DNA from: Allocoleopsis franciscana PCC 7113
GTDB taxonomy: Bacteria; Cyanobacteriota; Cyanobacteriia; Cyanobacteriales; Coleofasciculaceae
Length of the DNA: 64,000 nucleotides
Assembly (NCBI RefSeq): GCF_000317515.1
Contig: NC_019738.1
Span: forward strand, 1,681,623-1,745,622
Reading direction: 5' to 3'
Under the pieces are notes generated by a model. It did not search any database, was not told the DNA's origin, and saw only the letters and a list, made by a program, of their open reading frames with translations. Positions 16,952 to 35,387 of the stretch are shown piece by piece (positions within the stretch are counted from its first letter, which is position 1; every line of letters begins with the position of its first letter). Made by a program: the position numbers and the translations under genes.

Positions 16952-19900
16952 TTGCATAACCTCTCCCCAGATGAGAAATATAGATGCATCGAGTCAGCAA
17001 TCTGCCTTCCTAACTCAAGAGAGAACTTGCCAATGCACTACCGCCTCAAATCTCTCAGCCTTGCCACTGCTACTCTACTGCTTTCGCTCTTCACTCCCCT
17101 TTTACCGCTTACCTTGAAGTTTGAGCCTCTGGTAGTTCAGGGGCAAACGCTGGAACAGCAAGAACCTGGGGCAGAGAAGTGGTATTTAGAAGCTTACCAG
17201 CGATTGCTCACAGGTGAGTATTTAGCCGCATTGGAAAAACTTCAGCAGGATTTAGTTACGTTCAGAAAAAACAGTGATCGGGCTAGGGAAGGCGCTGTCC
17301 TCACCTGTATTGGGATAGTTTACAGCAACATTGGACAGTACACCCAAGCTCTAGAGTACTCTCAGAAAGCTTTAGCTATTCTTAGAGAAGTTGGGAAGTT
17401 GCCTAACGGCGACCGAGCCACTGCACGCACCTGGGAAGGGAGAACCGTCTACAGTATTGGGTTAGTTTATGGATCGATTGGAGAATATACCCAAGCTTTG
17501 GAGTACTCACAGCAAGCTTTAGCGATTAATAGAGAAGCTAGAGATCGCCTCTGGGAAGGGAGAACCCTCAATAGCCTTGGAGGAACGTACTACTACCTGG
17601 GACAGTACCCCAAAGCTTTGGATTGCTATCAACAAGCTTTAGCTATTTTCAAAGAAGTTGGCAATCGCTCTGATGAAGGAAGAATTTTCAACAATTTTGG
17701 GTTAGTTTACCGCAACCTCGGAGAGTATTCCAAAGCTTTGGAGTTTTTTCAGCAAGCCTTAGCCATTCACAAACAAATTGGCGACAAGGCAGCGGAAGGA
17801 ACCAGTATCAGAAATCTTGGGCTAGTTTACCGCAACCTGGGACAATATCCCAAAGCCTTGGAGTTCTTTGAGCAAGCCTTAGCCATTCACAAACAAATTG
17901 GCAATAAAGGGATGGAAGGGACGACCCTTAGCAATATAGGGGCAGTTTATTGGGATCTGGGACAGTACCCCGAAGCCTTGGAGTTTTTTCAGCAAGCCTT
18001 AGCAATTCGCACTGAAATTGGTGACAAGGCAGGAGAAGGGGAAACCCTCAACAACATAGGGGCAGTTTACGACAAACAGGAAAAGTATGCCAAAGCTTTG
18101 GATTTTTATCAACAAGCTTTAGCGATTTCTAGAGCAATTGGCGACAAGCCAGGAGAAGGGGGAACTTTCAACAACATAGGGGCAGTTTACGACAAACTAG
18201 AACAGTACCCCAAAGCCTTAGAGTTCTTTCAGCAAGCTTTAGCGATTGCTAAAGAAATTAACGACAAGGTGGGGCAAGGAACAATCCTGAACAATATAGG
18301 TTTTCTCCTAGATGCACAAAACCAGTCAGAGTTAGCGATTGTATTCTTCAAGCAATCGGTCAATGTCACAGAGGGAATTCGCAAAGATTTACGGGTACTG
18401 CCAAAAGAGCAACAGCAGTCATTCACCGAAACCGTTGCAGGCACCTATCGCCGTCTAGCCGACCTCCTCCTGCAACAAGACCGAGTCCTCGAGGCGCAAC
18501 GAGTCCTCGACCTCCTCAAAGTCCAAGAACTTGAAGATTACCTCCGCAACGTGCGCGGCAATAACAATACTGCTCAAGGATTGCCGAATCTCCTACCCGA
18601 ACAACAGACATGGGAGAGTTATCAGGCAATTCTCAACAAAGCTGTTGAAATTGGCAAAGAACTCACCCAACTGCGACAGCTTAAAAAACAAAATGGCACT
18701 CTTACCCCTACTCAAGAACAGCGTATCGCCCAACTGCTGAAAGCCCAAGAAACGATTAGAGAAGAATTTAACAACTTCACCAGAAGTCCAGAAGTAATAG
18801 CATTGGTGACACAAAAAAGTCCCGAAACCCTTTCTCAGGATTTGCTGCTGCAAATGGGAAACTTCAACGCCTTACAAGATAACCTCAAGAATCTGCAACA
18901 AAATGCCGTCCTCCTCTACCCCTTAATTCTGGACGATCGCATCGAACTCATCCTCACCACCCCCGATTCTCCCCCCATTCGGCGCACTGTCCAAGTTCCC
19001 AAGAAACAACTCAACCAGACAATTGCCGCCTTTCGCAGCGCATTACTCGATCGCACATCCGATGCCAAGCCCCCCGCACAACAACTCTACAACTGGCTGA
19101 TTAAACCCCTAGAAGCAGAACTCAAAGCCGCAGACGCCCAAACGATTATCTACGCACCCGACGCTCAACTGCGTTACATCCCCTTAGCCGCGTTGTACGA
19201 CGGGCAACAATGGTTAGTGCAACGCTACCGCATCAATAATATTACCGCCGCTTCCCTCACCGATCTCAACACCAAACCCCAACGCAAAATGCAAGTCTTA
19301 GCAGGTGCCTTTGCCACCGGACGCTACAGCTTCAAGGTTGGTGAACAATCTTTTGACTTTGCCGGGTTGCCTTTTGCGGGAACTGAGGTGGAGAATTTAG
19401 CCAACACCGTTCCTACTACAACCAAACTCATCGATAAAGCCTTCACCCCCGAAGTCACCGTTCCCAAAATGGACGACTACACTGTCGTGCATCTCGCTAC
19501 TCATGCCGCCTTTGTCGTGGGGACACCGGACGATTCCTTTATTCTGTTTGGTAATGGAGAACGCATCACCCTGCGAGACATCCAAAAGTGGAGCCTCAAA
19601 AACGTTGATTTAGTCGTGCTTTCTGCCTGTGAAACTGGATTAGGTGGAAAACTGGGGAACGGGGAAGAGATTCTCGGCTTAGGCTACCAGATGCAGAGGG
19701 CAGGGGCAAGAGCGGCGATCGCATCCTTATGGACAGTTGATGATGGCGGTACTCAAGCGTTGATGGATAGCTTCTATGCCGCGTTGGAATCGAAGCAAGT
19801 CGGGCAAGATAGCCAACCCACCAAAGCTGAAGCCTTGCGCCAAGCTCAAATTGCCCTAATTACGGGGGATTATAAGGCATTAGGTCAACAGCGAGGGCTG

Positions 19901-20005
19901 GGAGTGCAGCAACGAATTCAGAGTAGTTTATCGCCAAAGGTGACTACCAATTTGAGTCATCCTTATTATTGGGCACCGTTTATTTTAATTGGCAATGGCT
20001 TGTAA
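16952..20005 (+). CDS. TPR-repeat plus CHAT-domain (caspase-like protease) protein, probably secreted or periplasmic
   Basis: The likely start is the ATG at 17033 (MHYRLKSLSLATATLLLSLFTPLL, signal-like). At least 10 tandem 40-aa TPR units follow (YTQALEYSQQALAI.REVG...). The C-terminal CHAT domain has a His (VHLATHAAF) and Cys (VVLSACETGLG) catalytic dyad. Confidence 0.85.
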   Translation: MHNLSPDEKYRCIESAICLPNSRENLPMHYRLKSLSLATATLLLSLFTPLLPLTLKFEPLVVQGQTLEQQEPGAEKWYLEAYQRLLTGEYLAALEKLQQDLVTFRKNSDRAREGAVLTCIGIVYSNIGQYTQALEYSQKALAILREVGKLPNGDRATARTWEGRTVYSIGLVYGSIGEYTQALEYSQQALAINREARDRLWEGRTLNSLGGTYYYLGQYPKALDCYQQALAIFKEVGNRSDEGRIFNNFGLVYRNLGEYSKALEFFQQALAIHKQIGDKAAEGTSIRNLGLVYRNLGQYPKALEFFEQALAIHKQIGNKGMEGTTLSNIGAVYWDLGQYPEALEFFQQALAIRTEIGDKAGEGETLNNIGAVYDKQEKYAKALDFYQQALAISRAIGDKPGEGGTFNNIGAVYDKLEQYPKALEFFQQALAIAKEINDKVGQGTILNNIGFLLDAQNQSELAIVFFKQSVNVTEGIRKDLRVLPKEQQQSFTETVAGTYRRLADLLLQQDRVLEAQRVLDLLKVQELEDYLRNVRGNNNTAQGLPNLLPEQQTWESYQAILNKAVEIGKELTQLRQLKKQNGTLTPTQEQRIAQLLKAQETIREEFNNFTRSPEVIALVTQKSPETLSQDLLLQMGNFNALQDNLKNLQQNAVLLYPLILDDRIELILTTPDSPPIRRTVQVPKKQLNQTIAAFRSALLDRTSDAKPPAQQLYNWLIKPLEAELKAADAQTIIYAPDAQLRYIPLAALYDGQQWLVQRYRINNITAASLTDLNTKPQRKMQVLAGAFATGRYSFKVGEQSFDFAGLPFAGTEVENLANTVPTTTKLIDKAFTPEVTVPKMDDYTVVHLATHAAFVVGTPDDSFILFGNGERITLRDIQKWSLKNVDLVVLSACETGLGGKLGNGEEILGLGYQMQRAGARAAIASLWTVDDGGTQALMDSFYAALESKQVGQDSQPTKAEALRQAQIALITGDYKALGQQRGLGVQQRIQSSLSPKVTTNLSHPYYWAPFILIGNGL

Positions 20006-21126: not shown

Positions 21127-22131
21127 ATGCTGGATTCTCTATTCACGACTGTCTCCCATCCTACTCAAGATTTGATTCCCCATCGCCGTCCTCGTAAAGG
21201 TGTGATTGTTGGTGCAGGACAGGTGGGAATGGCTTGTGCGTACTCCCTGCTGATTCAAAATGTCTTTGATGAAATGGTGATTGTTGATGTCAACACCGAA
21301 AAACTGGAAGGGGAGGTGATGGACTTGAATCACGGCTTACCTTTCGTTCAGCCTACCATTATCCGCTCAGGAACCTTAGCTGATGGAGAGGATGCTGATA
21401 TTGTTATTATTACGGCTGGAGCTAAACAGAAGCCAGGAGAGAGTCGTTTAGAGCTAGTGCAACGCAATTTAGAGATATTTAAAGGCTTAATTCCCCAAGT
21501 CGTTAAGTATTGTTCCAAAGCTATTTTGCTGATTGTGACGAACCCAGTAGACATCATGACTTATGTCTCTCTCAAATTATCAGGGTTGCCAAATTCAAGT
21601 GTGATTGGTTCGGGGACGGTACTGGATACGGCTCGTTTTCGTTATCTATTGGCGGAGAAGTTTCAGCTTGATTCTCGGAGTTTACATGCTTACATTATTG
21701 GTGAGCATGGCGATAGTGAAGTTCCGGTTTGGAGCAAAGTTAATATATCAGGAATGCAACTGTTTCAAGAAGATGCAAATGAAGAAAAATTAGCAGACAT
21801 GGATAGGATTAAACCCATTTTTGAACAAGTCAAGAATGCAGCTTATGAGGTGATTCAACGCAAAGGCGCAACCAGTTATGCGATTGGCTTGGGTGTCACC
21901 CAGATTGTTCAATCCATTTTACGCAATCAAAATCGACTGCTAACGGTTAGTAGCCTGATTCATGGGTTTGAGGGTATTGACGATGTTTGTTTAAGTCTGC
22001 CAGCGGTGGTAAATCGTCAAGGAGTTAGCCGGACTTTAAATCTCACGCTGACTCCCACAGAAAAGGAGAAATTACAGCATTCAGCCAGAGTTTTGCGGCA
22101 AACGATTGAAAAACTCGACCTTTCATCTTAA
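21127..22131 (+). CDS. ldh: L-lactate dehydrogenase (LDH/MDH superfamily)
   Basis: [27 protein letters not shown] (Gln at the substrate-specificity position) and [13 protein letters not shown] around the active-site His favour LDH over MDH. Confidence 0.75.
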
Positions 22132-22378
22132 TTTTGTCAATTCTTTCAAAATTACATCAAGTCTTTAACGTTTAAAAGCTAGATTTTAGTTTTGATAAGT
22201 CTAAACCCAATTTCAGGCGCTTGCTGACTGACCGGATTAGCCAGTAAATTTGTAACTAGAGATAACTCAATTCCTACTTGTTGCCTTAGTCCGGGGAATT
22301 CTCTCGATCGCATCAGGCTTAGTGCTTCTCCCTCATTACTATTAGGTCTTCGCTTACCACTAGGGGAGTCAACAGCGC

Positions 22379-25300
22379 GTGAATGTATTTGTAAAGCTTT
22401 TCAAAGAAGGCTTGACAATCTTGCCATTGTTCGGATTTTCAGTCTGTTTAACAGTGCTTCCGACTCTTCCATCTGTCCAGGCACAACCCATTACACCGGC
22501 TGTTGACAGTACCAATACTATCGTCACTCCCAACGGCAACCAAATTAACATTTCAGGTGGTACCTCTTCGGGAGACGGTAGTAATCTTTTTCATAGTTTT
22601 GAGCAATTTGGCCTGGATGCCGGTCAAGTTGCCAACTTCATGTCTAATCCCCAGATTCGCAATATCTTAGGTCGCGTTGTTGGGGGTAATCCCTCCTTGA
22701 TTAACGGACTCATTCAGGTGAGTGGAGGCAACTCCAACTTATTTTTAATGAATCCTGCCGGGATAGTTTTTGGTGCTTCGGCTAGCTTAAATGTTCCTGC
22801 TTCCTTTACCGCAACGACTGCCACAGGAATTGGGTTGGGTGGCAATCATTGGTTTAATGCTTTTGGGAATAATGACTATCCCAACTTAGTCGGCACCCCT
22901 AGTCAGTTTGCGTTTGACCTTTCTCAACCCGGAAGTGTCATCAATGCGGGTAATCTCGCCGTGTCGCCGGGACAAAATCTAATGTTACTTGGGGGCAGTG
23001 TACTCAATACCGGGACAGTGAGTGCTCCCGGAGGAACGATTACCCTTGCTGCCGTACCGGGTGAGAATTTAGTCCGAATTAGCCAACCCGGACACGTACT
23101 CAGTATCGAGATTGAATCCAAGACAGCAGGAGGACAGACGATAGCCTTTAACCCCGTTAATTTGCCCACACTACTCACGGGCACAATCGGCAGTGGGGGA
23201 GTGCCCTCGTCTGCGGTTCCCACAGAGGCAGGAACCATTATGGTTTCTGGGACTCTGGATGCTTCTAATTCAACTGGGGGGAAGATAGGCGGTAACGTCA
23301 ATGTTTTAGGGACAAATGTCAATCTCGTTGAAGCCAATATCAACGCCTCTGGAAGTGATGGCGGTGGCACCGTACTCATCGGTGGAGATTATCGCGGGTT
23401 AGGCACAGTACCCAATGCTGAGTTTACCGATGTAGACAGCAATACCACCCTTCAAGCGAATGCTCTCACACAGGGAGATGGTGGCAAAGTTGTTGTTTGG
23501 GGGAATAACACCACGACCTTCCAAGGTCAGATTACAGCACAGGGGGGTGCTTTCGGGGGTAATGGTGGGTTTGCGGAAGTATCCGGTGCTCAGACGTTGA
23601 AGTATCAGGGTGTAACAAATTTACTGGCACCCAATGGACAGACGGGAAACTTACTGTTAGACCCCGAAACCTTTATCATTGCCAATGTAGGCGGGGACAT
23701 TACCCCAGAGGGCGTAGCCGCTGCCCTGACAACTGCCAATGTCACCTTTGATGCTACCAATTTCCTCACTGTTAGTGATGCGATTAACTCCACGAGTGGG
23801 TTTAATTTAACCCTAGATGCACCCACGATTAACCTGAATGCACCCATTACCCTAGGGGGTCAACTCTTGGGTACAGCCAACAATACCACCGTGAATGTGG
23901 GGTTGGCTGGCAGGATTCAAAATGGCATAGATGTGGCAACCAGTGGAGCAAATGTCAATCTCGCCCCTGGAACCTTCACTGAGTCCGTCACGATTAACAA
24001 ATCCCTCACGTTAACGGGTGCAGGCGCTGGGAATACTACCGTAAGTGGCAACAATACCTTCCGAGTATTTAATATTTCTGCTGCTAATGTCACTTTGGAT
24101 GGTTTGACGATTACCAATGGACGCGCCGATAGTGGCGGTGGCATTCTCTACACGGGGACGGGCACGCTAAATATTACCAATAGCATTATCACAGGCAATC
24201 AAGCCATCGGTGCCAATGGTGCAAATGGCAGTAACGTTGGTGCGGGTGGTGGTGGCGGTGGCGGCGCGGGACTTGGTGGCGGCCTGTTCATCAATGGAAA
24301 TGGTACAGTCACGGTGACCAATTCGACTTTTGCTGGCAATCAGGCCATTGGTGGCAATGGTGGTCAGGGATTCCCAAATAATGGGGTATTTGATGGTACG
24401 GGTGGCAATGGTGGTGGCGCTAACCCAGGCATCGGCGGGACTCCCGGTAACCCTGGTGGTGCGGGGGGGTTTGCCAGTGGTGGTGGCGGCGGCGGTGGTT
24501 CTGACGAGGTGGGTGGGGCTGGCGGTGCGGGTGGTTTCGGCGGTGGTGCGGGGGGCGGCGGCGGTCGTACGGGTGGGTTTAGCGGTAACCCCAGTAATCC
24601 TCCCGGTTTCGGCGGGGGTACGGGTGGACAGGGTCAATTTAGTGCGGCAGGTGGCGGTGGTGGCGGTGCTGGATTCGGTGGCGCGATTTTTGTCAATTCT
24701 GGCTCTTTGTCGGTGAATAACAGCACCTTTGTGAACAATTCATCGGCGGGCGGAGTTGGTGGTACCGGGGGTTTTGGCGGTGATGGTGGTGCAGGGCAAG
24801 GGACAGGCGGTGCGATTTTTGTGAATACGGGTAATGCCACGCTGACCAACAATACCCTCAGCGGCAACACGGCGAGTCACAGTGGCGGCGGCATTTATAA
24901 CTTAAATGGCACCACCAGCCTTAATCATCTGACGATCGCAAATAATACCGCAACTCTGGGCAATGGTGGCGGCCTCGTTAATAATGGCGGTACTGTCAAT
25001 GTCCGCAACACGCTGATTGCCAATAATAATCATCCCACGTCCCCCGATGTGTTTGGCCTCTTCACCGACTTGGGGAACAACCTGATTGGCAATAGTGCAG
25101 GCAGCACCAGTTTCACCACCAGCACTCTCGTGGGGACAACCACGAACCCCATCAACCCCCTACTCGCACCTCTGCAAAATAATGGCGGTGCTACCCAGAC
25201 TCATGGGTTGCTTCCTGGCAGTCCCGCCCTTAATGCAGGGGCGACGGTTACAGGTGTCACCACCGACCAACGAGGTGTATCCCGCACAGGGATTGGTGAC

Positions 25301-27103
25301 CCGGTTCCTGATATTGGTGCCTATGAAGCGATTCGAGTGTTATTCGGCAATCCCACTTACAGTATTAATACTAATGCAACCCAAGCGGCGATCGCGGTTC
25401 AGGTAGACCGCACGCCTGCAATTGGCACTGGCGGAAATATCAACGTTAACTATAATACCGCTGATGGCACGGCAATCTCTGGCACCGACTACAGCACAAC
25501 CACGGGAACCCTCACGTTCACCAATTCGGTCACCCGCCAGACGTTTAATGTCCCTATTCTGAGTACGGCGAGGAATAATCGCACCGTTAATCTCAGCCTG
25601 ACGAATCCTAAAAATGCTGTTTTGGGGAGTCCCAATTCTGCCCTGCTGACTCTCCTCCAACCTCTTCCCCTCCCGTCTCCGTCACCCTCTCCCATACCGT
25701 CTCCTTCTCCCACACCGTCACCCTCTCCTACCCCGACAACCGTTAATCCTGTTGACTTGACGTTACCCCAGAAACCGCTAGAGCCAGCACCGATTCAAAA
25801 CAACAACTCTCAACCTTTAGAGAGGGCTGTGGAGAGTATTGACCAATCCTCCAGCACGGATTTTGAGCAATATCTCGGCGTGGGCGAAACACCAGGTATC
25901 AGCTTAGTGCAAGCTCGAAATCTCCTGCGTGGCATAGAAAGTTCGACAGGGGTCAAACCTGCGGTTATTTATGCTATTTTTGTCCCGGAAAGTGTGACTC
26001 CATCGCCTGCCTCGTCTCAAGGTTTAGAGGAAGATTCGGCAGAACTTTTACTGTTACGCTCCCTAAAGCCGAGTCCGCGCGATCGTTTAGAATTGATTTT
26101 AATTTCTGGTACCGGTAAACCCATCCGCAAATCCGTCAATATCACCCGTGCCGAAGTGATAGCTATGGCGGAAAAGTTTCGATTTACGGTGACCAATGCC
26201 CGCGATGCTTTAGGCTATCTCACCCCAGCCCGAAAAATGTATCAGTGGCTGATGGCTCCCTTAGAAGCTGACATTGAGCAGCGAGGGATTAAAAATTTGA
26301 CCTATATCACCGACAGTGGGTTACGCACCATCCCCTTAGCTGCTCTCCACGATGGTAAAGGGTTTATTGTCGAACGTTACAGTATCGGCTTGATGCCCAG
26401 TCTTTCTCTCACGGATACCCGTTATGGTGATATCCACTCATCCGAGGTACTCGCCATGGGAGCTAGTGAGTTTAAAGACAATAAGCCCTTACCTGCCGTA
26501 CCTGTAGAATTGAGTGTCATTACCCAAGCTTGGCAAGGTTTATCGTTTCTCAATCAAGGCTTTACCCTGGAAAACCTGAAGTCGCAACGGGCAAAAACTC
26601 CCTTTGGCATTATCCACCTAGCGACTCATGCCGAATTTCTGCCAGGGAAACCCGCCAACTCTTATATTCAGTTACAAGACCAGAAGTTGGCTCCGTTGCA
26701 ACTTAAGTCTGTGGGGTGGGCGAACCCGCCTGTGGAGTTATTGGTGCTGTCTGCCTGCCGCACGGCGGTAGGAGATGAGGAAGTGGAATTAGGCTTTGCG
26801 GGGTTAGCCATACAAGCGGGAGTTAAATCGGCCTTAGCTAGTCTGTGGTATGTCAATGATGAAGCGACATTGGGGTTAATGAGTGAGTTTTACCAACAAC
26901 TCAAAACGGCTCCCATTAAAGCCGAGGCTCTGCGAAAGGTACAGTTGGCGATGATATCAGGAAAGGTGCATATCCAAAATCAGCAGTTGCTAACTAGCGA
27001 GGGTGAGTTTCCCTTGCCTACGGAGTTAAGGGGTACTGGTGACAGAGGTTTTTCCCATCCCTATTATTGGAGTGGCTTTACGATGATCGGTAATCCCTGG
27101 TAA
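22379..27103 (+). CDS. giant secreted protein: TPS (filamentous haemagglutinin N-terminal) domain, Gly-rich Pmp-like beta-helix, Calx-beta, P/S/T linker, C-terminal CHAT protease
   Basis: Signal peptide ...LPSVQA-QP. TPS domain NLFHSFEQFGLDAGQVANFMSNP...LINGLIQVSGGNSNLFLMNPAGIVFG. GGAI/FxxN repeats (GGAIFVN twice). Calx-beta NYNTADGTAISGTDYSTTTGTLTF. Linker PLPSPSPSPIPSPSPTPSPSPTPTT. CHAT domain IHLATHAEF...LVLSACRTAVG. Confidence 0.85.
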   Translation: MNVFVKLFKEGLTILPLFGFSVCLTVLPTLPSVQAQPITPAVDSTNTIVTPNGNQINISGGTSSGDGSNLFHSFEQFGLDAGQVANFMSNPQIRNILGRVVGGNPSLINGLIQVSGGNSNLFLMNPAGIVFGASASLNVPASFTATTATGIGLGGNHWFNAFGNNDYPNLVGTPSQFAFDLSQPGSVINAGNLAVSPGQNLMLLGGSVLNTGTVSAPGGTITLAAVPGENLVRISQPGHVLSIEIESKTAGGQTIAFNPVNLPTLLTGTIGSGGVPSSAVPTEAGTIMVSGTLDASNSTGGKIGGNVNVLGTNVNLVEANINASGSDGGGTVLIGGDYRGLGTVPNAEFTDVDSNTTLQANALTQGDGGKVVVWGNNTTTFQGQITAQGGAFGGNGGFAEVSGAQTLKYQGVTNLLAPNGQTGNLLLDPETFIIANVGGDITPEGVAAALTTANVTFDATNFLTVSDAINSTSGFNLTLDAPTINLNAPITLGGQLLGTANNTTVNVGLAGRIQNGIDVATSGANVNLAPGTFTESVTINKSLTLTGAGAGNTTVSGNNTFRVFNISAANVTLDGLTITNGRADSGGGILYTGTGTLNITNSIITGNQAIGANGANGSNVGAGGGGGGGAGLGGGLFINGNGTVTVTNSTFAGNQAIGGNGGQGFPNNGVFDGTGGNGGGANPGIGGTPGNPGGAGGFASGGGGGGGSDEVGGAGGAGGFGGGAGGGGGRTGGFSGNPSNPPGFGGGTGGQGQFSAAGGGGGGAGFGGAIFVNSGSLSVNNSTFVNNSSAGGVGGTGGFGGDGGAGQGTGGAIFVNTGNATLTNNTLSGNTASHSGGGIYNLNGTTSLNHLTIANNTATLGNGGGLVNNGGTVNVRNTLIANNNHPTSPDVFGLFTDLGNNLIGNSAGSTSFTTSTLVGTTTNPINPLLAPLQNNGGATQTHGLLPGSPALNAGATVTGVTTDQRGVSRTGIGDPVPDIGAYEAIRVLFGNPTYSINTNATQAAIAVQVDRTPAIGTGGNINVNYNTADGTAISGTDYSTTTGTLTFTNSVTRQTFNVPILSTARNNRTVNLSLTNPKNAVLGSPNSALLTLLQPLPLPSPSPSPIPSPSPTPSPSPTPTTVNPVDLTLPQKPLEPAPIQNNNSQPLERAVESIDQSSSTDFEQYLGVGETPGISLVQARNLLRGIESSTGVKPAVIYAIFVPESVTPSPASSQGLEEDSAELLLLRSLKPSPRDRLELILISGTGKPIRKSVNITRAEVIAMAEKFRFTVTNARDALGYLTPARKMYQWLMAPLEADIEQRGIKNLTYITDSGLRTIPLAALHDGKGFIVERYSIGLMPSLSLTDTRYGDIHSSEVLAMGASEFKDNKPLPAVPVELSVITQAWQGLSFLNQGFTLENLKSQRAKTPFGIIHLATHAEFLPGKPANSYIQLQDQKLAPLQLKSVGWANPPVELLVLSACRTAVGDEEVELGFAGLAIQAGVKSALASLWYVNDEATLGLMSEFYQQLKTAPIKAEALRKVQLAMISGKVHIQNQQLLTSEGEFPLPTELRGTGDRGFSHPYYWSGFTMIGNPW

Positions 27104-27662
27104 ACTCTCTGGGTAGAAATATTTTATTCATGGCTTGGTAAGTTGTGGCTGAGTTATACAAAAACTTCAGCATTGACAAGATTTCTCAAAAGAGATAAAT
27201 CTTTGGCGTTATTTGCAACAATTTTTTAGGACTGACGCATTGACACCAACTCCAAAACCGAGGTTAATACGTAATACACGTTATACATTGTATGACGGGT
27301 CGAGAGTCTCACAAACCAAATAAAGGGAAGCCTCAAACAATTTAGAATTTCTAGCTTTCCATAACGTCATTGTGTCCTCGGTGCTCTACCATAATAAACC
27401 CAGAGCATTTACGTCATTAATCGGGTTGAAACCCAAGTCGTAAATGCCGGGTGTACCCTTTTAAAAAGCAGCTTACGTCTTAGAAAGTAAGCTTACTTGA
27501 TTATGCTCAGAATCAGGGAGTCTACTAAACCCTTAAAAAAGTTGATTTCTCTTAACTATTGAGAGAATCTATGAAATCTACCAAAAGTTAGTCAGGGCAT
27601 CTACTATCCAGCCTCTAATCTAACCTTATAAAATTAAACCCATTCCAGGGTGCTACCTTCTG
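27104..27662 (+). promoter_or_regulatory. AT-rich 560-bp upstream region of the surface-protein gene cluster
   Basis: No ORFs. It carries a repeated GCATTGACA (-35-like) motif at about 27166 and 27238, and a stem-loop CATTTACG...CGTAAATG at about 27410-27450. Confidence 0.3.
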
Positions 27663-28580
27663 ATGAAATCTTTATTACCGCAGTTGGGCAGTTTTGAACT
27701 GCTTTTCACTGCATTTCTGACCGCATTCTTCGTCGCTGGTGCGTCACCGCTTACCGCTCAAACTGAAATTAAAAATTCCGCTTCCGCATCCGGAGGGAAT
27801 TTACCAGACGTTGTTCAGTCCAATGAAACTGTACTGACCGCTGGTCAAGCCGTTCTTCAATTAGTCAAAACCGCAGACCGCGCTGCGGCTGAACCCGGTG
27901 ATACCGTCATTTATCGCCTCGCACTGACCAACACCGGAGAGGTTCCAGCCAATCAGATTACGATAACCGACACGCCACCACTAGGAGTGCGGTTTTTACC
28001 AGAGTCATTGCAAGGCGCACTCACCACAGGCAGTACCACCACACCCGTGAGTTTGCCTCCGGCAGTAACAGCAGACCGGCAAATCACTTTTACCTATCCC
28101 AGACTCGCGCCGGGGGAGACACTCACAGTGATTTATGCCTCGGTGGTCACACCAGACGCCGTCCGGGGGGATGGGAGAAATGTGGCGCGGGAGTCTCGCA
28201 GCAATCTAGCCGCCTTTCAACTCCGGATTCGACAGGGCATTTTATCCGACTGTGCCACTATCGTCGGTCGGGTATTTGTCGATAAAAACTTTGACGGGCA
28301 GCAGCAACCTGGAGAACCGGGAGTACCGAATGCGGTGCTTTTCATGGATGACGGCAATCGCATCACCACCGATGCCAATGGCTTATTCTCGTTAGTCAAC
28401 GTCATCGCCGGCCATCGCACAGCCACGTTGGATTTGAGCAGTCTGCCGGGATACAGCCTTGCGCCAAACATCAAATTTATTGAAGGCAATAGCCAGTCAC
28501 GCCTGGTACGGCTCGAACCGGGCGGAATGGCTCGGATGAATTTTGCCGTGACACCCGCTTATGGGGAGCAACAGCAATGA
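27663..28580 (+). CDS. secreted DUF11 (conserved repeat domain) plus Cna-B/SdrD-B-like domain protein
   Basis: Signal peptide LLFTAFLTAFFVAGASPLTAQTE. DUF11-like LVKTADRAAAEPGDTVIYRLALTNTG. B-type beta-sandwich GRVFVDKNFDGQQQPGEPGVPNAVLFMDDGNRITTDANGLFSL. The stop overlaps the next start (ATGA). Confidence 0.7.
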   Translation: MKSLLPQLGSFELLFTAFLTAFFVAGASPLTAQTEIKNSASASGGNLPDVVQSNETVLTAGQAVLQLVKTADRAAAEPGDTVIYRLALTNTGEVPANQITITDTPPLGVRFLPESLQGALTTGSTTTPVSLPPAVTADRQITFTYPRLAPGETLTVIYASVVTPDAVRGDGRNVARESRSNLAAFQLRIRQGILSDCATIVGRVFVDKNFDGQQQPGEPGVPNAVLFMDDGNRITTDANGLFSLVNVIAGHRTATLDLSSLPGYSLAPNIKFIEGNSQSRLVRLEPGGMARMNFAVTPAYGEQQQ

Positions 28581-31500
28581 AAAGCCCTCAAGAAAAGACA
28601 AACAGTAAGGATGAAATATTAAGGATGAAGCATGAAATCATCCCTCGACTCGTGAAAGAGATTTCGCCTTCCACTCAAGCGAATGCTAGCCATTTGGGCA
28701 ACAAATTGAACAGAAAATCCAGCCGCAGAAAGCGCAGGCTTCATCCTTCAGAGTTGACCCTTCAAACTTTTCCTAACAGGATTGCTTTTTACGTTTTACT
28801 ATCGAAAGGCTGGTTTCCCTCACTCAGCTTGGGTTTACTCACCACCCTATTGGGAACCATCGGGCTTATCCCGACAGCTAAGGCTGACGAATTGCCAGAA
28901 CCGCCTAATTTAGGTTTAGGGAAGGATGAAGTATTAACAACCGATGTGTCCTTGAATCATGGGCTGAAAACAGATATTGCATCAGTCTCGGTATATCGTT
29001 TAACTCATTTCCATCAATCGCTGAAGGATGAACCCTTAAATCTGACAAATGAAGCCCTTAATCCTTCATCTTTCGATAAATTTTCCGGTGACAATCAGAA
29101 AATTCACACATTAACTGACTTGCTCAAAGGTGAGGGGGAAGAGGTGCCCCAAACCGTAGAAATCGTCCCGAAAAACGCCTCCGTACAGTCATCTGTCCTC
29201 CGGTCTTTAAACATAGACTCCACAGCAATTGATGCTCCAAGACAAGCCGATAGCCTTCTACCGCGTTCAAAGGATAGTGTTTCCCGCAGCGAAATCCTGC
29301 AAAGACAGGAGTTAGAAGTCCGTGAACAATCGCAACCCAATACTGACACTTCGGAAGCCTTCGCACCCCAAACACCAACCGAGGGACAACTGGAAAATCT
29401 GGGAGAGTCTGCTCGAAAACAGCCTATCCTGGCTCTAACCAATGACCCCAACCGAGTGAGAATCCTATCGCCTTCCCTGGCGCTAAAGCAAAACGACGCC
29501 CCAGCCACAGAAGCCGCCGCACTCGCTCCTGGTACAGTTCGCATTCTCACGCCCCAAAGTGGCGTTACCGACAAAACCTCAACGAACCTCGTCATTCAAT
29601 ACAACGCCAATGACTCGGTTCAGGTCAGTGTGAACCAAAAACCCCTCGACCCTAAGACAGCCACTCAGCAGAACCGGGATGAGGCGCAAAACCTGATTAA
29701 CCAAGCTTGGTACAACATCCCCTTAAAAGAGGGAGACAATACCCTCACCGTCCAAGCTGGAAACGGAACCCCCGTTAGCATTCAGGTTGTGGTGCAAAAG
29801 ACCGCCCTCAAACTAGAAATTGCTCCCGTGGGCGACCCCCGTGTGGCAGCCGATGGTCGTTCCACCCTTACCGTTTCCGGACGCATTACCGATGAAAACG
29901 GTCAACTTTTAAGCGAAGATGCCGTAGTTACCTTAACGGCGGCAGCAGGACAATTTGTCGGTGCCGACCAAGACAAAGACCAACCCGGTTTTCAAGTAAT
30001 GGCACGGGGAGGACAATTCACCGCCCAACTCCAATCCAGCCTAGAGGCGCAAAAGGTGCGGATTCGTGCTGCCCTCGAACCGAAAGAGGAAAAGCAGACA
30101 GGGAGACCGGGCGAGATAGGGAATGCTCCCGCACATTACTCCGAGTCATCCAGTCTCCCCCTCTCCGCCGCTTCCCCTCCGGCAGTGGCACAAACCCCCC
30201 TGGAAGCTTACACCCAGGTGGAATTTGTGACCAATTTACGCCCCTCCTTAGTTTCAGGCGTGATTAACCTGCGAATTGGGCCATCGGGAACTAACTTTTG
30301 GGGCAGGCGGCGAGACTTCCTCAACCCAGAAACCATCGACGACGGCACGGAATTTGACTTACAAGGAGCCGTTTTTGCCACCGGACGGATTGGCGAGTGG
30401 CTGTTCACAGGAGCTTATAACAGCAGCCGCAACCTTAACGAAACTTGTGATGGCATCACCCGTTTGTTCCGAGGGCCACAGTTTTGCGAACAACAATATC
30501 CCGTAACTGGGGATAGTTCTACCGTCGATTACCTCACCCCCTCGATCGATAGCGTTTATCTCCGCTTTGAGCGCAATGCCGGACTGGGGAAAGAACCCGA
30601 CTATGTGATGTGGGGAGACTACAACAGCAACGAGTTCGCCAGAGAATCCCAACTTTTTACCGCCACCACCCGCCAGTTGCATGGCTTCAAAGGCAATTAC
30701 AACTTTGGTAACTTGCAACTCACCGCCATGTTCTCGCGCAACCTCCAAGGGTTCCAACGAGATACCATTGCCCCCAATGGCACCAGTGGTTATTACTTCG
30801 TTTCTCGACGACGCCTGGTTCCGGGAAGTGAGAATATCTTTATCGAAACCGAAGAAGCCAATCGTCCCGGTACCGTGATTTCCCGCAAACCCTTAGGACG
30901 AGGGTCAGACTATGAGATTGATTATGACCGGGGCACGATTTTATTCCGCCGTCCGATTCTCGCCACCGAATTTGCCTTTTTTGATGCGCCGTTGAGTGAG
31001 GCCGGTGCTGGCTCAACCCTGCTCGTGCGGAAGATTGTCGTCACTTACCAATATGAGGGGGGTGTTGAGAGTGACGACACCAATCTCTATGCAGGGCGTG
31101 TACAATACAACTTCTCCCAAGCGTTCCAGCAAGAAAGCTGGCTGGCTGGAACGTACCTACGGCAAGAGCAGGGAATCCAAGACTTTGAACTTTATGGGGC
31201 AGACTTCCGGGTTGCCCTAGGAACCAACGGACAAATCATTGGGGAAGTGGCTCATTCGGAGCATGACTCCCTGTTTCGAGGCAATGTCTCCGGTTCTGCC
31301 TATCGCTTAGAGGCGAATGCGACCATTGTCCCCGGACTGCTGGGACGAGCCTATTACCGATCGGTGGAGGAAAACTTTAGCAATGATGCCACCCTCAGCT
31401 TTACTCCGGGACAAACTCGCTACGGTGCTGCGATCGCTTATTCTATCGGTTCCAGCACCACCTTGCGCGCCGGATACGACTACGAAGAAAACTTTGGCGT

Positions 31501-33016
31501 CTCCCCCCTCATCCGCACCGACTTCTTCGATTTGTTCAACCCAGGCGTCGCCGTCCCTCCGGGTACTGGGGTTAACAACTCCCTGAGAACCATCAGCGCG
31601 GGAGTGCAGCAAAAAATTGGCAATGCAGCATTAAGTGTTGATTTTGTCAACCGTGAGCGCGAAGACCGAGTCGGCAATGTCTTCACCGGTAACGCCTCCC
31701 AACTCGTTTCCCGCCTAGGACTCCCCATCAGCGAAAGCCTGACATTTTTGGCGCAAAATGAACTAAGCCTCGGAGATAATGACCCCCTCTACCCCAATCG
31801 CACCACCTTAGGCATGGATTGGAGAGCTTACAAAGGGGTTACCCTGCGCCTCGCCCACCAATTCTTTGATGGTGGCATTTTGGGCAATGACTCCATCACT
31901 AGCCTGGATACAATTTTGTCCCACAACATCTGGGATAACACCACCATCACCGGTCGCTATTCCGTGATTAGTGGCTTCAACGGGGTAACCGGACAGGGGG
32001 CGGTAGGACTCAATCACCGTTGGACTGTTTCCCCAGGATTACTGGTGAATCTGGGCTATGAGCATACCTTTAGCAACACCGGGATTGCCACAGCGGCTGG
32101 GGTGCGCTTTGCTCAACCCTATACTGTCGGTCAAACCGCTGCCTCCCTTGCCTTATTAGGGGGCGATGTGTTCAATATCGGCGTGGAATATACCGATAAC
32201 CCCGACTTTAAAGCCTCTGCCCGCGTCGAACACCGCACGGGTTCCGGCAACAACAACACCGTGTTTTCCATTGCCGGGGCAGGGAAACTTTCTCCCTCCT
32301 TAACCCTCCTTGCCCGTTACGAGCAAGCCAACTTTGCCAACCAGCTCATTGAAGGGTTGAAAGATACGGCAAACCTCCGGGTAGGTTTAGCCTATCGCGA
32401 CCCCAATAGCGATCGCTGGAACGCCCTGATGCGCTATGAGTACCGCAAAAACCCCTCTACCATTCCCGAAACCCTACTCTTTGGCAGTGGTACCGGTTCC
32501 ACAGAACACCTATTTGCCGGAGAGGCGATTTTTGCCCCCAGTTGGCGATGGGAATTTTATGGCAAAGGCGCAGTCCGTTACAGCAACACCGATTTAGCCA
32601 ATAACTTCTCCAATGCTTCTACCATCTTCCTGACCCAACTCCGCGCTGCCTACCGCCTGAATTACCGGATGGATTTGGCGGTAGAAGGACGCTGGATTGG
32701 TCAAGATTCGCCCGGTTACAGCGAAACCGGCATAGCTGTAGAAACAGGCTATTATGTCACCCCCGATTTACGCCTCGCCTTGGGCTATAGTTTCGGCGGT
32801 GTGGATGACCGAGACTTTACCGGCTATCGCTCCAAAGGCGGCGTTTACTTTAATTTGACCTTCAAAGTCAACGAACTCTTCGGCGGCTTTGGACGGCAAA
32901 AAGTGGTGCCACCCCAACAGCAGGAATCGCTGACAAAACCCGTTGCCAACCAGCCAACATCGGATACCCCAGGGACGCAATCGAGCCGCCCTTCTAATAC
33001 CACGAGTGAGGAGTGA
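28577..33016 (+). CDS. very large predicted outer-membrane protein: extended signal peptide, Big_1-like Ig domain, C-terminal beta-barrel-like region of about 900 aa
   Basis: A 60-aa basic N-extension precedes the hydrophobic core (NRKSSRRKRRLHPSELTL...LLTTLLGTIGLIPTAKA). Ig-like segment TLTVQAGNGTPVSIQVVVQKT...STLTVSGRITDENGQ. The C-terminal half is full of alternating-hydrophobic, aromatic-ended strands (LRAGYDYEENFG, LRVGLAYRD, YYVTPDLRLALGYSFGG, VYFNLTF). Confidence 0.6.
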   Translation: MKSPQEKTNSKDEILRMKHEIIPRLVKEISPSTQANASHLGNKLNRKSSRRKRRLHPSELTLQTFPNRIAFYVLLSKGWFPSLSLGLLTTLLGTIGLIPTAKADELPEPPNLGLGKDEVLTTDVSLNHGLKTDIASVSVYRLTHFHQSLKDEPLNLTNEALNPSSFDKFSGDNQKIHTLTDLLKGEGEEVPQTVEIVPKNASVQSSVLRSLNIDSTAIDAPRQADSLLPRSKDSVSRSEILQRQELEVREQSQPNTDTSEAFAPQTPTEGQLENLGESARKQPILALTNDPNRVRILSPSLALKQNDAPATEAAALAPGTVRILTPQSGVTDKTSTNLVIQYNANDSVQVSVNQKPLDPKTATQQNRDEAQNLINQAWYNIPLKEGDNTLTVQAGNGTPVSIQVVVQKTALKLEIAPVGDPRVAADGRSTLTVSGRITDENGQLLSEDAVVTLTAAAGQFVGADQDKDQPGFQVMARGGQFTAQLQSSLEAQKVRIRAALEPKEEKQTGRPGEIGNAPAHYSESSSLPLSAASPPAVAQTPLEAYTQVEFVTNLRPSLVSGVINLRIGPSGTNFWGRRRDFLNPETIDDGTEFDLQGAVFATGRIGEWLFTGAYNSSRNLNETCDGITRLFRGPQFCEQQYPVTGDSSTVDYLTPSIDSVYLRFERNAGLGKEPDYVMWGDYNSNEFARESQLFTATTRQLHGFKGNYNFGNLQLTAMFSRNLQGFQRDTIAPNGTSGYYFVSRRRLVPGSENIFIETEEANRPGTVISRKPLGRGSDYEIDYDRGTILFRRPILATEFAFFDAPLSEAGAGSTLLVRKIVVTYQYEGGVESDDTNLYAGRVQYNFSQAFQQESWLAGTYLRQEQGIQDFELYGADFRVALGTNGQIIGEVAHSEHDSLFRGNVSGSAYRLEANATIVPGLLGRAYYRSVEENFSNDATLSFTPGQTRYGAAIAYSIGSSTTLRAGYDYEENFGVSPLIRTDFFDLFNPGVAVPPGTGVNNSLRTISAGVQQKIGNAALSVDFVNREREDRVGNVFTGNASQLVSRLGLPISESLTFLAQNELSLGDNDPLYPNRTTLGMDWRAYKGVTLRLAHQFFDGGILGNDSITSLDTILSHNIWDNTTITGRYSVISGFNGVTGQGAVGLNHRWTVSPGLLVNLGYEHTFSNTGIATAAGVRFAQPYTVGQTAASLALLGGDVFNIGVEYTDNPDFKASARVEHRTGSGNNNTVFSIAGAGKLSPSLTLLARYEQANFANQLIEGLKDTANLRVGLAYRDPNSDRWNALMRYEYRKNPSTIPETLLFGSGTGSTEHLFAGEAIFAPSWRWEFYGKGAVRYSNTDLANNFSNASTIFLTQLRAAYRLNYRMDLAVEGRWIGQDSPGYSETGIAVETGYYVTPDLRLALGYSFGGVDDRDFTGYRSKGGVYFNLTFKVNELFGGFGRQKVVPPQQQESLTKPVANQPTSDTPGTQSSRPSNTTSEE

Positions 33017-33026
33017 ATAGTTAGGA

Positions 33027-35387
33027 GTGCAATACAACTTATTGGAATTTTCGGTCATGCGGGGAGTCAACCGTCCAGCGTCAAACTTGAACAAGGCAGA
33101 AGAAGGAAGGCAGGAGGCAGAAGTTAGCCAAGTTTGCCCTTCTCTGGTGGAAAGAAAGCGCAACAACAAGCCTTTTGCCTGGTTATTTTTGAGTTTTGAC
33201 CAAAAAAGGCCGAAGGCAGAAGACAGGAGGCATGAGAAGGAATGCCCTTTGCCCTTTGCCTTCTACCTTCCTCAATTGCTCCTGCTGAGTGTTTTAGTCG
33301 CGCCACTGAGGGCGACAGCCCAGCCGACCAATTCTGTATCCGTGGTGGTGAATAGTAATCAGGATGGCCTGATTCAACCCGACAATCGCTTAACCTTGCG
33401 GGAGGCGATCGCCATTGTCAACGGTCAGCTCAGTCTAGAACAATTGAGTCAGGCGGAAAAAGCCCAAGTTCGACCCCTCGATGCCAATACAGCCTCTCGC
33501 ATTGAATTTAATTTACCTCCAGACCAAACCACCATTTACCTCCAAAGCCTATTACCATCCCTAGCCAGTCCGGGATTAGTGGTGGATGGGACAACCCAAC
33601 CGGGTTATGATCCAACCCGTTCAGCAACCGCAGAAATTGAAATTCCCATTCCTGTGGTGGCTCTAGCACCCGCACCCAACCAAGAAGTCCTGCGGGGACT
33701 CACGATTGTTGCCGATAACATCACCGTGCGGGGTTTAAGCCTCTATGGCTTTGGCAAGTGGGGTGGGGCGACACTCAACACCCCACCGGGAGATATTGTG
33801 ATCGAGCGGAGTCCTGCATTTCCTGATGTCACACTCCAGCCACCCACCTCTAGTTTGGATTTGAGGAGTCCTAAACCTAACTCAAAACCCAGCGAATCCC
33901 AGCCACCGAAGAATGTCGCGATTGAACTGAATTGGTTGGGTATCCCACCCAATGGGCAAATGCCCAGTCAGTTATCAGCCTTTGGCTTGTATGTGTTTAA
34001 CAGTCTAGGTACCACCATTCGACGCAACCGCATTGCCAATCATCAGGGCAGTGGCATCATTACCGGCGCTCAAGCCGAGAATATGTTGGTAACAGAGAAC
34101 ATCATCGTGGGTAATGGGCTAGCTGGAATGCCCGATGCCATTCGCCTCGAAGGGCAGATTGACCAGTCACAAATTACAGGCAATTTAATTTGTGGCAATG
34201 ATGGCAGTGGGGTGTATTTGTTTAAGCCCAAGGGTGCTGTACAAATTCGCAATAACCAAATCACCTCGAACGGCAGACGCTTGCGTCAGGCGGCTGTTTA
34301 CCTGATGGGCAATAATCATCAGGTGATGGATAACCAAATTAGTTATCAGTCGGGGCCGGGTGTGGTGGTGACGGCTTATCCCCAAAACGACGTTCAGCAG
34401 AATCGCTCCTCTTCGCGCAACATCATTGAGAACAATCGCTTTGCCCAACTCGAAGGGTTGAGTATTGACCTCAACACCCAACAGAATGTTAACCCGATTC
34501 ATTTTCAACGGGGGGATGGCCCGAATCCTCTCCGGAATTCGCCCAACCGACGGGAAGAAACGGGGAATGCGGCGATTAATGCGCCGCAGTTTCTCAGTTC
34601 AGAGTTTTTTGTGTTGGGAACAGAGGTGAAGCTGTTTGGCAAGGCTGATCCGGGTTCAACGGTTGAAGTGTATCGAGTTCGGGAAAATACAACAATCCCC
34701 TATGGCCCGTTAAGTGAACCCCTCACGAGTGTGGCGACCGATGAGCAAGGGGATTTTAGCGTCACGGTGGATAATTTACAGCCTGGGGACAAAGTCAGCG
34801 CGATCGCCACTCATCCCCAGTACGGCACCTCTGAACCGGCGCTCAATGCCAGGGTTCTTGCGGCGGATGGGACTGGCACAGCCCAACCTGATGTACCCTC
34901 TGGTGTGATTCCCCCATGTACGACGGCACAAGTACCACCCAATCCCCCAGAACCGACTCCTCCACCAGAACAACTAAGGCTGTCTGTTGCGCGGAATATC
35001 CATTTCGCTCTCGACCAATCCACCATCAGTCCAGAAAGCGCCGTCATCCTCGACCAAATTGTTGCGGTGATGCGCTCTTATCCCTTTCTCACCGTTGACA
35101 TTCAGGGTCACACTGACCCCCGTGCCAGTGCGGCCTACAACCAAGCCTTAGGAATGCGTCGTGCGATCGCCGCACGAAATTACCTGTTGCGTCAAGGAAT
35201 TGCTCCAGAACGCTTGACAATTCGGTCATTTGGTGAATTAGAACGCCGAACCACGGGCAGTGACGTTGTGGATTATGCACGCGATCGCCGCGTAGAGTTC
35301 ATCTTCCAAGATACGAGAGGCTTGGAAATCATCTTTGAAAATCAAGAAACCGACTTGCAAGTAGAACCTAGGGGAGGATCGAGGTAG
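33027..35387 (+). CDS. secreted right-handed beta-helix protein with C-terminal OmpA-like peptidoglycan-binding domain
   Basis: Signal-like PFAFYLPQLLLLSVLVAPLRATAQP. Parallel beta-helix repeats (GNLICGNDGSGVYLF, IRNNQITSNG). C-terminal OmpA_C-like DIQGHTDPRASAAYNQALGMRRAIAARNYLLRQGIAPERL. The 5' 220 nt contain STRR-like repeats, so the real start is probably the TTG near 33249. Confidence 0.65.
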   Translation: MQYNLLEFSVMRGVNRPASNLNKAEEGRQEAEVSQVCPSLVERKRNNKPFAWLFLSFDQKRPKAEDRRHEKECPLPFAFYLPQLLLLSVLVAPLRATAQPTNSVSVVVNSNQDGLIQPDNRLTLREAIAIVNGQLSLEQLSQAEKAQVRPLDANTASRIEFNLPPDQTTIYLQSLLPSLASPGLVVDGTTQPGYDPTRSATAEIEIPIPVVALAPAPNQEVLRGLTIVADNITVRGLSLYGFGKWGGATLNTPPGDIVIERSPAFPDVTLQPPTSSLDLRSPKPNSKPSESQPPKNVAIELNWLGIPPNGQMPSQLSAFGLYVFNSLGTTIRRNRIANHQGSGIITGAQAENMLVTENIIVGNGLAGMPDAIRLEGQIDQSQITGNLICGNDGSGVYLFKPKGAVQIRNNQITSNGRRLRQAAVYLMGNNHQVMDNQISYQSGPGVVVTAYPQNDVQQNRSSSRNIIENNRFAQLEGLSIDLNTQQNVNPIHFQRGDGPNPLRNSPNRREETGNAAINAPQFLSSEFFVLGTEVKLFGKADPGSTVEVYRVRENTTIPYGPLSEPLTSVATDEQGDFSVTVDNLQPGDKVSAIATHPQYGTSEPALNARVLAADGTGTAQPDVPSGVIPPCTTAQVPPNPPEPTPPPEQLRLSVARNIHFALDQSTISPESAVILDQIVAVMRSYPFLTVDIQGHTDPRASAAYNQALGMRRAIAARNYLLRQGIAPERLTIRSFGELERRTTGSDVVDYARDRRVEFIFQDTRGLEIIFENQETDLQVEPRGGSR

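Follow-up and report, generated by a model that had tools for sequence, protein, structure and literature searches.

Architecture of the TPS-CHAT gene

The window analyzed here is a 64,000-nucleotide stretch of the filamentous cyanobacterium Allocoleopsis franciscana PCC 7113 (RefSeq assembly GCF_000317515.1, contig NC_019738.1, positions 1,681,623 to 1,745,622 of the forward strand), numbered from its first letter. At 22379-27103 it carries a complete gene whose product begins with a two-partner secretion (TPS) domain, as found in exported TpsA proteins, and ends in a CHAT domain, a caspase-like protease module. A sequence-only reading had described this gene as a TPS domain fused to a Pmp-like beta-helix, a Calx-beta domain and a CHAT protease, and had likened the arrangement to that of CdiA-like proteins. 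The gene and its parts are as follows, with amino acid (aa) positions in the product.

22379-27103, + strand: complete TPS-CHAT gene with GTG start, 1574 aa and TAA stop (open reading frame [ORF] list and translation)
22379-22483, + strand: predicted Sec signal peptide, aa 1-35, with K6 and K9 in the n-region, a hydrophobic core and a cleavage site between VQA and QP, recognized by eye
22511-23137, + strand: TPS secretion domain, aa 45-253 (Pfam PF05860, E = 6.2e-43; TIGR01901, E = 1.6e-22)
22583-22600, + strand: NLFHSF motif, aa 69-74, read from the translation
22751-22762, + strand: NPAG motif, aa 125-128, read from the translation
23138-23698, + strand: conserved block in alignment A1 that extends the N-terminal module to aa 440 (GGTVLIGGDY...GNGGF.E.SG...LLDP)
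23699-25153, + strand: variable passenger, aa 441-925, a right-handed parallel beta-helix by AlphaFold2 model, Foldseek and six GGxI...N repeats
24365-24661, + strand: Gly-rich insertion within the beta-helix, aa 663-761, predicted to be disordered (predicted local distance difference test [pLDDT] ~35)
25154-25330, + strand: choice-of-anchor Q domain, aa 926-984, capping the beta-helix at its C-terminal end (NCBIfam NF041518, E = 1.1e-22)
25328-25660, + strand: Calx-beta domain, aa 984-1094 (Pfam PF03160, E = 4e-14)
25661-25918, + strand: Pro/Ser/Thr-rich linker, aa 1095-1180, PLPLPSPSPSPIPSPSPTPSPSPTP... (21% Pro, 15% Ser)
25919-27100, + strand: constant C-terminal CHAT module, aa 1181-1574 (Pfam PF12770, E = 2.5e-66)
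26225-27094, + strand: Pfam CHAT match, aa 1283-1572, covering model positions 3-289 of 289 (full length)
26627-26629, + strand: codon of the predicted catalytic His1417 in HLATHAEF (aa 1413-1420), from conservation in alignments
26756-26758, + strand: codon of the predicted catalytic Cys1460 in LSACRT (aa 1457-1462), from conservation in alignments

The TPS, Calx-beta and CHAT matches (E = 6.2e-43, 4e-14 and 2.5e-66) all lie far above the curated Pfam cutoffs and agree with the domain calls of the sequence-only reading. Within the N-terminal module, the filamentous-hemagglutinin NPXG domain (adhes_NPXG, NCBIfam) is also matched at aa 71-148, and the extension that follows is 50 to 68% identical to every relative tested. 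The product aligns with the ortholog P0001 from residue 1, and an identical protein is also carried by a 43-kb Logan contig. The junction that follows the predicted signal peptide, AQ-x-ITPA, is conserved in the family consensus (alignment A1). Promoter and terminator scans of 22050-27750 gave site counts not above those of shuffled sequence, and an Rfam scan of the entire window gave zero matches.

Conserved residues and predicted fold of the CHAT module

Alignment A1 contains 23 sequences, namely, the window protein and 22 diverse homologs. The TPS motif residues (N69-F74 and N125-G128) are invariant in it, which upholds the hallmark region named in the earlier reading. The claim of an intact CHAT dyad also holds: both residues, H1417 and C1460, can be located, with conservation of at least 90% in A1 and complete conservation in alignment A2. 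Across the 120 best homologs, the four quoted motifs (NLFHSF, NPAG, HLATHAEF and LSACRT) are each present in 97 to 116 proteins, the His motif in 116 and the Cys motif in 108. Cysteine occurs at just two positions of the window protein, 23 (within the signal peptide) and 1460, so the sole cysteine of the mature protein is the predicted catalytic one; the 120 homologs have a median of 2 cysteines per ~1,780 aa. A single cysteine in the mature protein fits both an unfolded crossing of the envelope and selection retaining one functional thiol.

The AlphaFold2 model of aa 1171-1574 is well determined (pLDDT 86; predicted template modeling score, 0.89). Its best Foldseek match is Csx29, the TPR-CHAT protease of the type III-E CRISPR "Craspase" (8eex_B, E = 1.7e-13), followed by separase, SAVED-CHAT, DdvA (8rot_A, E = 1.8e-6) and gingipain RgpB (1cvr, E = 4e-5), among others. 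A single-sequence phmmer search of the CHAT region against the PDB gave no match, and a profile built from 10 CHAT sequences matched TPR-CHAT 7zoq weakly (E = 0.8), pairing H1417 with the 7zoq His and C1460 with the Cys of "ACET". Because these sequence matches are marginal, the comparison of the dyad with those of characterized CHAT proteases rests mainly on the predicted fold. According to the model, the C-terminal module has a caspase-hemoglobinase-type fold like that of Csx29 and separase.

For the C-terminal 404 aa, no solved structures match better than those of the TPR-CHAT proteases and separase (Foldseek E = 1.7e-13 to 1e-6), and the spacing between their His and Cys is similar to that in the window protein. 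Yet Csx29 and separase are cytoplasmic, are built on TPR scaffolds and are regulated by Cas7-11 and RNA or by securin, whereas here a CHAT domain without TPR stands behind a secretion domain and resembles them only marginally in sequence (profile E = 0.8). Indeed, CHAT and caspase-like proteases are now studied as cytoplasmic executioners, as in Craspase, gasdermin activation, separase and HetF. There are also extracytoplasmic precedents. DdvA, a periplasmic TPR-CHAT anti-sigma factor of Myxococcus xanthus, has a CHAT domain outside the cytoplasm, a His/Cys dyad and an adjoining flexible linker; it differs in being an inner-membrane-anchored signaling protein with TPR and a zinc anti-sigma domain and in lacking a TPS domain or fiber. 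Gingipains and clostripain, which are secreted clan CD cysteine proteases, likewise have a caspase fold and act outside the cytoplasm, but they belong to families C25 and C11 rather than CHAT, are exported by the type IX secretion system or Sec and have another domain context.

A Pmp-like passenger and an optional CHAT module

In the model of aa 441-1110, three-strand rungs with pLDDT above 90 build a right-handed parallel beta-helix, which is followed by a beta-sandwich. The Gly-rich insertion (model residues 223-321) has a pLDDT of ~35, and glycine makes up 43.5% of aa 600-800, in keeping with the low complexity described from the sequence. The best beta-helix match in Foldseek is Rhombotarget A (9cdv_A, E = 1.6e-4); pectate lyase and PL6 lyase are also matched. 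The beta-sandwich superposes on NCX1 CBD1 and on the Calx-beta domain of integrin beta4 with a root mean square deviation of 1.5 to 1.8 Å (E ~1e-8).

Six repeats of the form GG[AG][IL]-x(7-9)-N-[ST]-x-[FIL]-x-x-N begin at residues 586, 633, 767, 810, 836 and 863, and this unit is the consensus repeat of alignment A4. Chlam_PMP (PF02415) has no match on aa 431-1004 at E ≤ 10 in Pfam, nor do the NCBIfam POMP-repeat models at E ≤ 1, while PF02415 is present in some homologs of the passenger. Hence, the Pmp-type repeats of the sequence-only reading stand as a motif pattern, as a fold and through homologs, and fail as matches to the Chlam_PMP and POMP profiles. "Pmp-like" is a fair description of repeat and fold; membership in the Pmp family is not established.

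The homologs of the passenger are annotated as CSLREA, choice-of-anchor Q or "outer membrane repeat" proteins. As a cassette of beta-helix, choice-of-anchor Q domain and Calx-beta domain, the passenger recurs in such proteins from many phyla without a TPS domain, and it recurs in TpsA proteins without CHAT. Six entries of the latter kind (P0243-P0248; L088, 10001-13339; L090, 10001-13390) are ~1,110 aa long and have no adjoining TpsB. Since TpsA proteins with the same passenger end without it, the CHAT module behaves as an optional C-terminal add-on. With the chlamydial Pmp proteins, Rhombotarget A and the choice-of-anchor Q/CSLREA proteins, the window protein shares GGxI...FxxN repeats, the right-handed beta-helix and the choice-of-anchor Q cap. 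It differs from them in that the helix is a cassette inside a TpsA protein, with CHAT at the C terminus instead of an autotransporter barrel and without a rhombosortase/PEP-CTERM-type anchor.

The TPS-CHAT family and the polarity of its variation

A protein search in which 8,000 candidates were scored returned at least 3,496 homologs at E ≤ 1e-10, and all of the 120 best carry both PF05860 and PF12770. Almost without exception, the homologs are from cyanobacteria. They are already named "CHAT domain-containing protein" or "filamentous hemagglutinin family protein," and their sources include Coleofasciculus, Microcoleus, Allocoleopsis, Symploca, Nostoc and Calothrix. Among the matches listed from the species collection, the closest genome is a metagenome-assembled genome of the Coleofasciculaceae, at 64% identity. 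The set used for neighborhoods comprises the best 80 loci from at least 600 matching genome stretches; the named source organisms are all cyanobacteria, with one record labeled Candidatus Sericytochromatia. The TPS-CHAT architecture is common and already annotated, and the window gene does not stand out within its very large cyanobacterial family. In the searchable literature, no paper joined CHAT with TPS or filamentous hemagglutinin terms.

Some members depart from the single-gene layout. Tandem arrays of two to four TPS-CHAT paralogs in the same orientation occur at L042 (CAVUSO010000001), L018, L009, L014 and L062, and the uncultured cyanobacterium CAVUSO010000001 has at least three separate TPS-CHAT loci. 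In Nostocales (L006, 10001-15625, Cylindrospermum stagnale PCC 7417; P0068, P0108 and P0111), the protein has a family-2 glycosyltransferase domain at its N terminus, and between this domain and the TPS domain lies an internal segment resembling a signal peptide (KRRK, a hydrophobic stretch and a junction between AQA and QS). This order suggests a cytoplasmic glycosyltransferase that a signal anchor joins to an exported TpsA, and it recalls the glycosyltransferase HMW1C, partner of HMW1.

CHAT is the most conserved region of the protein, with 67 to 81% identity among syntenic orthologs. Compared with the window protein, the syntenic ortholog P0005 has 66% identity in the TPS module, 81% in CHAT and just 27% in the passenger, while P0003 shows 72% identity in the passenger and ~50% in CHAT. 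For counts over the family, we used the 79 full-length TPS-CHAT ORFs outside the window (hereafter relatives). Detectable similarity to the window passenger is present in 8 of the 79, and one alone covers half of it. Judged by these identities, the polarity of variation is the reverse of that in contact-dependent inhibition (CDI), with constant termini and a variable, mosaic passenger. In CdiA, by comparison, it is the C terminus that is polymorphic, and an immunity gene accompanies it.

This polarity bears directly on the proposal of a CdiA-like contact-dependent toxin, in which the fiber would bind a neighboring cell, the CHAT protease would be delivered and siblings would be protected by an immunity protein. 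The order of TPS domain, long fiber and C-terminal enzyme fits such a toxin, as do the arrays of up to four paralogs, and Zhang et al. (2012) predict that C-terminal caspase-like domains may serve as toxins in polymorphic toxin systems (PMC3482391). However, the same study places Tox-Caspase with type II, type VI and type VII secretion systems and PVC, not with type V (PMC3482391). In the window family, it is the C-terminal module that stays constant while the passenger varies. The 1.2 kb downstream of the 80 loci holds no conserved same-strand ORF of at least 35 aa; the search for an immunity partner there, suggested with the sequence-only reading, yielded only antisense shadows of neighboring genes. 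The 560-bp intergenic region 3' of the window gene has no immunity-like ORF of at least 35 aa either. No VENN-like or pretoxin motif was found in the TPS-CHAT protein, and there are no matches to FHA-1 or FHA-2 repeats, with the whole-protein Pfam scan at E ≤ 0.01 returning TPS, Calx-beta and CHAT alone. Typical CdiA-CT toxins are, in addition, much smaller than the 400-aa CHAT module, which also counts against this scenario. We regard it as very unlikely.

The likeness to CdiA and BcpA is thus limited to the order of TPS domain, fiber and C-terminal enzymatic domain, to the presence of multiple paralogs and to recombination among them. The window protein differs by its inverted variation polarity and by the lack of VENN, FHA-1/FHA-2, an immunity gene and a cdiB neighbor. 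The architectural parallel drawn earlier breaks down in its key features, given the constant C terminus, the variable middle, the missing immunity ORF and VENN motif and the absence of FHA repeats. Regarding the proposed surface-displayed or delivered protease, a TPS-type exported protease is retained, and a CdiA-like delivered effector is not.

TpsB genes and conserved neighbors of the relatives

The flanking ORFs of the 80 loci were clustered without prior labels, and the top clusters were then identified by Pfam. The three commonest conserved neighbors are CHASE2 sensors (often with a fused nucleotide cyclase), DUF928 proteins and a ~600-aa protein with ShlB and POTRA_2 domains, that is, a TpsB. 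Two CHASE2 calls, at L084 and L045, proved false, the matches being limited to the cyclase part of the cluster hidden Markov model (HMM), and were removed before counting. Likewise, a 601-aa gene upstream of the Cylindrospermum homolog, suspected to be a TpsB, encodes a TPR protein.

TpsB lies within 6 kb of 14 of the 79 relatives, mostly divergent and immediately upstream, as at locus L022 of Coleofasciculus chthonoplastes. CHASE2, DUF928 or both are near 16, the two being almost always paired, and the window gene's orthologs (4 of 79) have a "CLIPPER" surface-protein cluster nearby, described below. None of these neighbors was found for 47 relatives, which is an upper bound, as some flanks stop at contig edges. 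In the TPS and CHAT modules, similarity to the window protein is about the same (~50 to 58%) for every neighborhood group. The TpsB neighbors support genuine two-partner secretion for the family, and because 14 of 79 relatives adjoin ShlB/POTRA_2 genes, TpsB-dependent export is a reasonable reading for its members. HMW1B-type TpsB proteins are abundant in cyanobacteria (PMC4104836). Moreover, TPS partner genes are not always within one operon, and some TpsB proteins secrete more than one TpsA (PMC5422565).

The module of TPS-CHAT, DUF928 and CHASE2 occurs at L006, L007, L011, L021, L025, L031, L034, L039, L050, L074, L082 and L087, and L082 has a TpsB in addition. DUF928 is barely mentioned in the searchable literature.

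These neighbors raise the possibility of extracytoplasmic proteolytic signaling, in which CHAT would cut a DUF928 or CHASE2 partner and so couple binding by the fiber to cyclic-nucleotide or other signaling. CHASE2 and DUF928 are, along with TpsB, the commonest conserved neighbors, with one or both near 16 of 79 relatives; the DUF928 proteins begin, as judged by eye, with a hydrophobic, signal-peptide-like N terminus; and CHASE2 is elsewhere fused to caspase domains (PMC8195603; see also PMC2853523). Yet neither CHASE2 nor DUF928 is encoded in the window or ever near this orthologous group. The link consists of the gene neighborhoods of paralogs alone, and no support was found in the searchable literature. 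For the window protein, we consider this scenario improbable.

A probable orphan TpsA protein with a proposed extracytoplasmic protease

Instead, we consider it probable that the window gene encodes an orphan type Vb (TpsA) surface protein that combines a variable binding fiber with a constant extracytoplasmic cysteine protease, and not an immunity-paired toxin. Architecture and family membership are directly observed, and the export route is strongly inferred. Under this model, the signal peptide would direct the chain, still unfolded, through Sec. As TPS domains are known to do, that of the window protein would dock on the POTRA domains of an ShlB/HMW1B-type TpsB encoded elsewhere in the genome; judging from the family context, one such transporter probably serves several TpsA paralogs. 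The passenger would be threaded out from N to C terminus and fold as a beta-helix capped by the choice-of-anchor Q and Calx-beta domains, giving a lineage-variable fiber that is modeled as to fold and probably adhesive or ligand binding in function. The Pro/Ser-rich linker would join this fiber to the constant 400-aa CHAT module with its intact predicted dyad, His1417/Cys1460. CHAT, at the far end of the fiber or retained in the periplasm, would then act outside the cytoplasm and may cleave a protein substrate in trans or the TPS-CHAT protein itself.

FhaB, the precursor of filamentous hemagglutinin (FHA) of Bordetella, and HMW1 of Haemophilus are the natural points of comparison. They share with the window protein a signal peptide (predicted in the latter), an N-terminal TPS domain with NPxG-type motifs and a long beta-helical passenger, and they depend on a TpsB with POTRA domains and barrel, such a gene adjoining 14 of the 79 relatives. 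As with the FhaB prodomain, the C-terminal region may be handled apart from the fiber. In contrast to these systems, the window gene has no tpsB in its operon or elsewhere in the window and no FHA-type repeats, and its passenger combines a Pmp/PbH1-like helix, a choice-of-anchor Q cap and a Calx-beta domain. Also, its C terminus is a predicted folded clan CD protease and not a degraded prodomain, as in FhaB.

Several points weigh against an orphan exported protease. No POTRA, ShlB or Omp85 protein was found among the ORFs of at least 224 aa in the 64-kb window, and an HMM of cyanobacterial TpsB sequences gave no match there; the absence of a TpsB from the window, already stated from the sequence, is confirmed by both scans. 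Of the relatives, 47 of 79 are also without a nearby TpsB, so export of the window protein is argued by analogy only. A thiol protease in an oxidizing compartment needs explaining; gingipains and clostripain indicate that thiol proteases in oxidizing surroundings are possible. The residue that follows His1417 is Ala, where caspases typically have Gly after the catalytic His. Finally, no experimental study of any TPS-CHAT protein was found in the searchable literature.

The linker and the relatives without CHAT bear on a further scenario, maturation in cis. Here, CHAT would be periplasmic like the FhaB prodomain, or act once at the surface, cutting its own linker with no other substrate. A long flexible Pro/Ser-rich linker does precede CHAT, and FHA matures by proteolysis (PMC5422565). 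In toxins and large surface proteins, caspase-like domains have been predicted to act as peptidases for autoprocessing or release (PMC3482391), and the periplasmic CHAT domain of DdvA, one of the structural matches, has been proposed to self-cleave a flexible linker (PMC11506125). On the other hand, the TpsA proteins that carry the same passenger without CHAT (P0243-P0248) imply that the passenger matures without it. The whole 400-aa module is strongly conserved across very different passengers, which suggests a role beyond one self-cleavage, and nothing lies C-terminal of CHAT to be released. Maturation in cis is thus unlikely to be the whole function, although it ranks above a signaling or toxin role in our estimate, and we retain the exported fiber with a constant protease as the better account.

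Other genes of the window

Upstream of the TPS-CHAT gene lie a dehydrogenase and an LDH/MDH gene. A second CHAT gene, at 16952-20005 (+), 2.4 kb upstream of the TPS-CHAT gene, encodes a 1017-aa protein with TPR and CHAT and no TPS domain. In their CHAT regions, this protein and the TPS-CHAT protein share 35% identity. The syntenic locus L003 lacks the TPR-CHAT gene, which means that the two are not a conserved pair.

Downstream, after the gap of 560 bp, a cluster of surface-protein genes occupies 27663-41197 (+). It encodes a 305-aa DUF11/"CLIPPER" isopeptide-domain protein, two proteins that each have DUF6923 and DUF11, a 786-aa protein with a beta-helix and an OmpA peptidoglycan-binding domain and a 1479-aa protein whose middle is Ig/invasin-like and whose C-terminal half, of ~900 aa, is beta-barrel-like and matches no family. 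The cluster looks like an uncharacterized outer-membrane-anchored fiber system. The motif TCAGGGnrTCTAC has two exact copies ahead of it, at 27513-27525 and 27592-27604, 79 nucleotides apart (0.39 copies expected in the whole window). A third, degenerate copy at ~27646-27660 immediately precedes the DUF11 start codon. L002, L003 and L005 retain the copies in their orthologous intergenic regions, and the motif is probably a regulatory or 5' untranslated region element of the downstream cluster.

The surface-protein cluster trails the TPS-CHAT gene in all five orthologous loci (the window, L002, L003, L005 and L008), and the genes upstream differ in L002 and L005. Such persistence could mean that TPS-CHAT is a partner of the cluster, either as its processing protease or with the giant barrel taking the place of TpsB. 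Yet the linkage is confined to close genomes (CHAT 67 to 81% identical), for which plain synteny may be enough, and the intergenic gap, with its own conserved motifs, separates the two units. The other 75 relatives have no such cluster, and the 1479-aa protein shows no POTRA domains. Of all the scenarios weighed here, we find this one the least credible and continue to favor an orphan TpsA protein exported through a TpsB encoded elsewhere.

At the right end of the window, a second TPS-domain ORF (63536-64000, +) runs off the edge; Pfam TPS matches it with E = 1.4e-23 over the 155 aa visible. The region therefore contains at least two TpsA-type genes, still without a TpsB. A search with the truncated ORF returned just short partial homologs and no exact match. 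The Pfam survey also identified a zinc-ribbon and PP2C phosphatase gene followed by an FHA-domain and Ser/Thr kinase gene at 42147-45809 (+) and a subtilase with a proprotein-convertase P-domain at 58660-60774 (+).

Implications for multicellular cyanobacteria

The TPS-CHAT family puts a CHAT protease behind a type V secretion domain, so the protease is probably active outside the cytoplasm. On a broader and more speculative view, which we put forward tentatively and with considerable doubt, TPS-CHAT proteins would constitute an unrecognized extracytoplasmic caspase-like protease system of multicellular cyanobacteria, in which a rapidly exchanged beta-helical recognition passenger is coupled to a constant executing or signaling CHAT module. 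If this is true, the passenger would recognize the surfaces of neighboring filaments, sheath, phage or grazers, and in many paralogs CHAT would be connected with CHASE2-cyclase sensors and secreted DUF928 proteins. The result would be a proteolytic signaling cascade from surface to cytoplasm that resembles caspase or separase control except for its place outside the cell. Candidate roles in multicellular cyanobacteria are adhesion remodeling, kin or phage sensing, and signaling. The constant termini with a swapped middle, the lone cysteine and the CHASE2, DUF928 and TpsB neighbors provide testable handles on what this protease may do.

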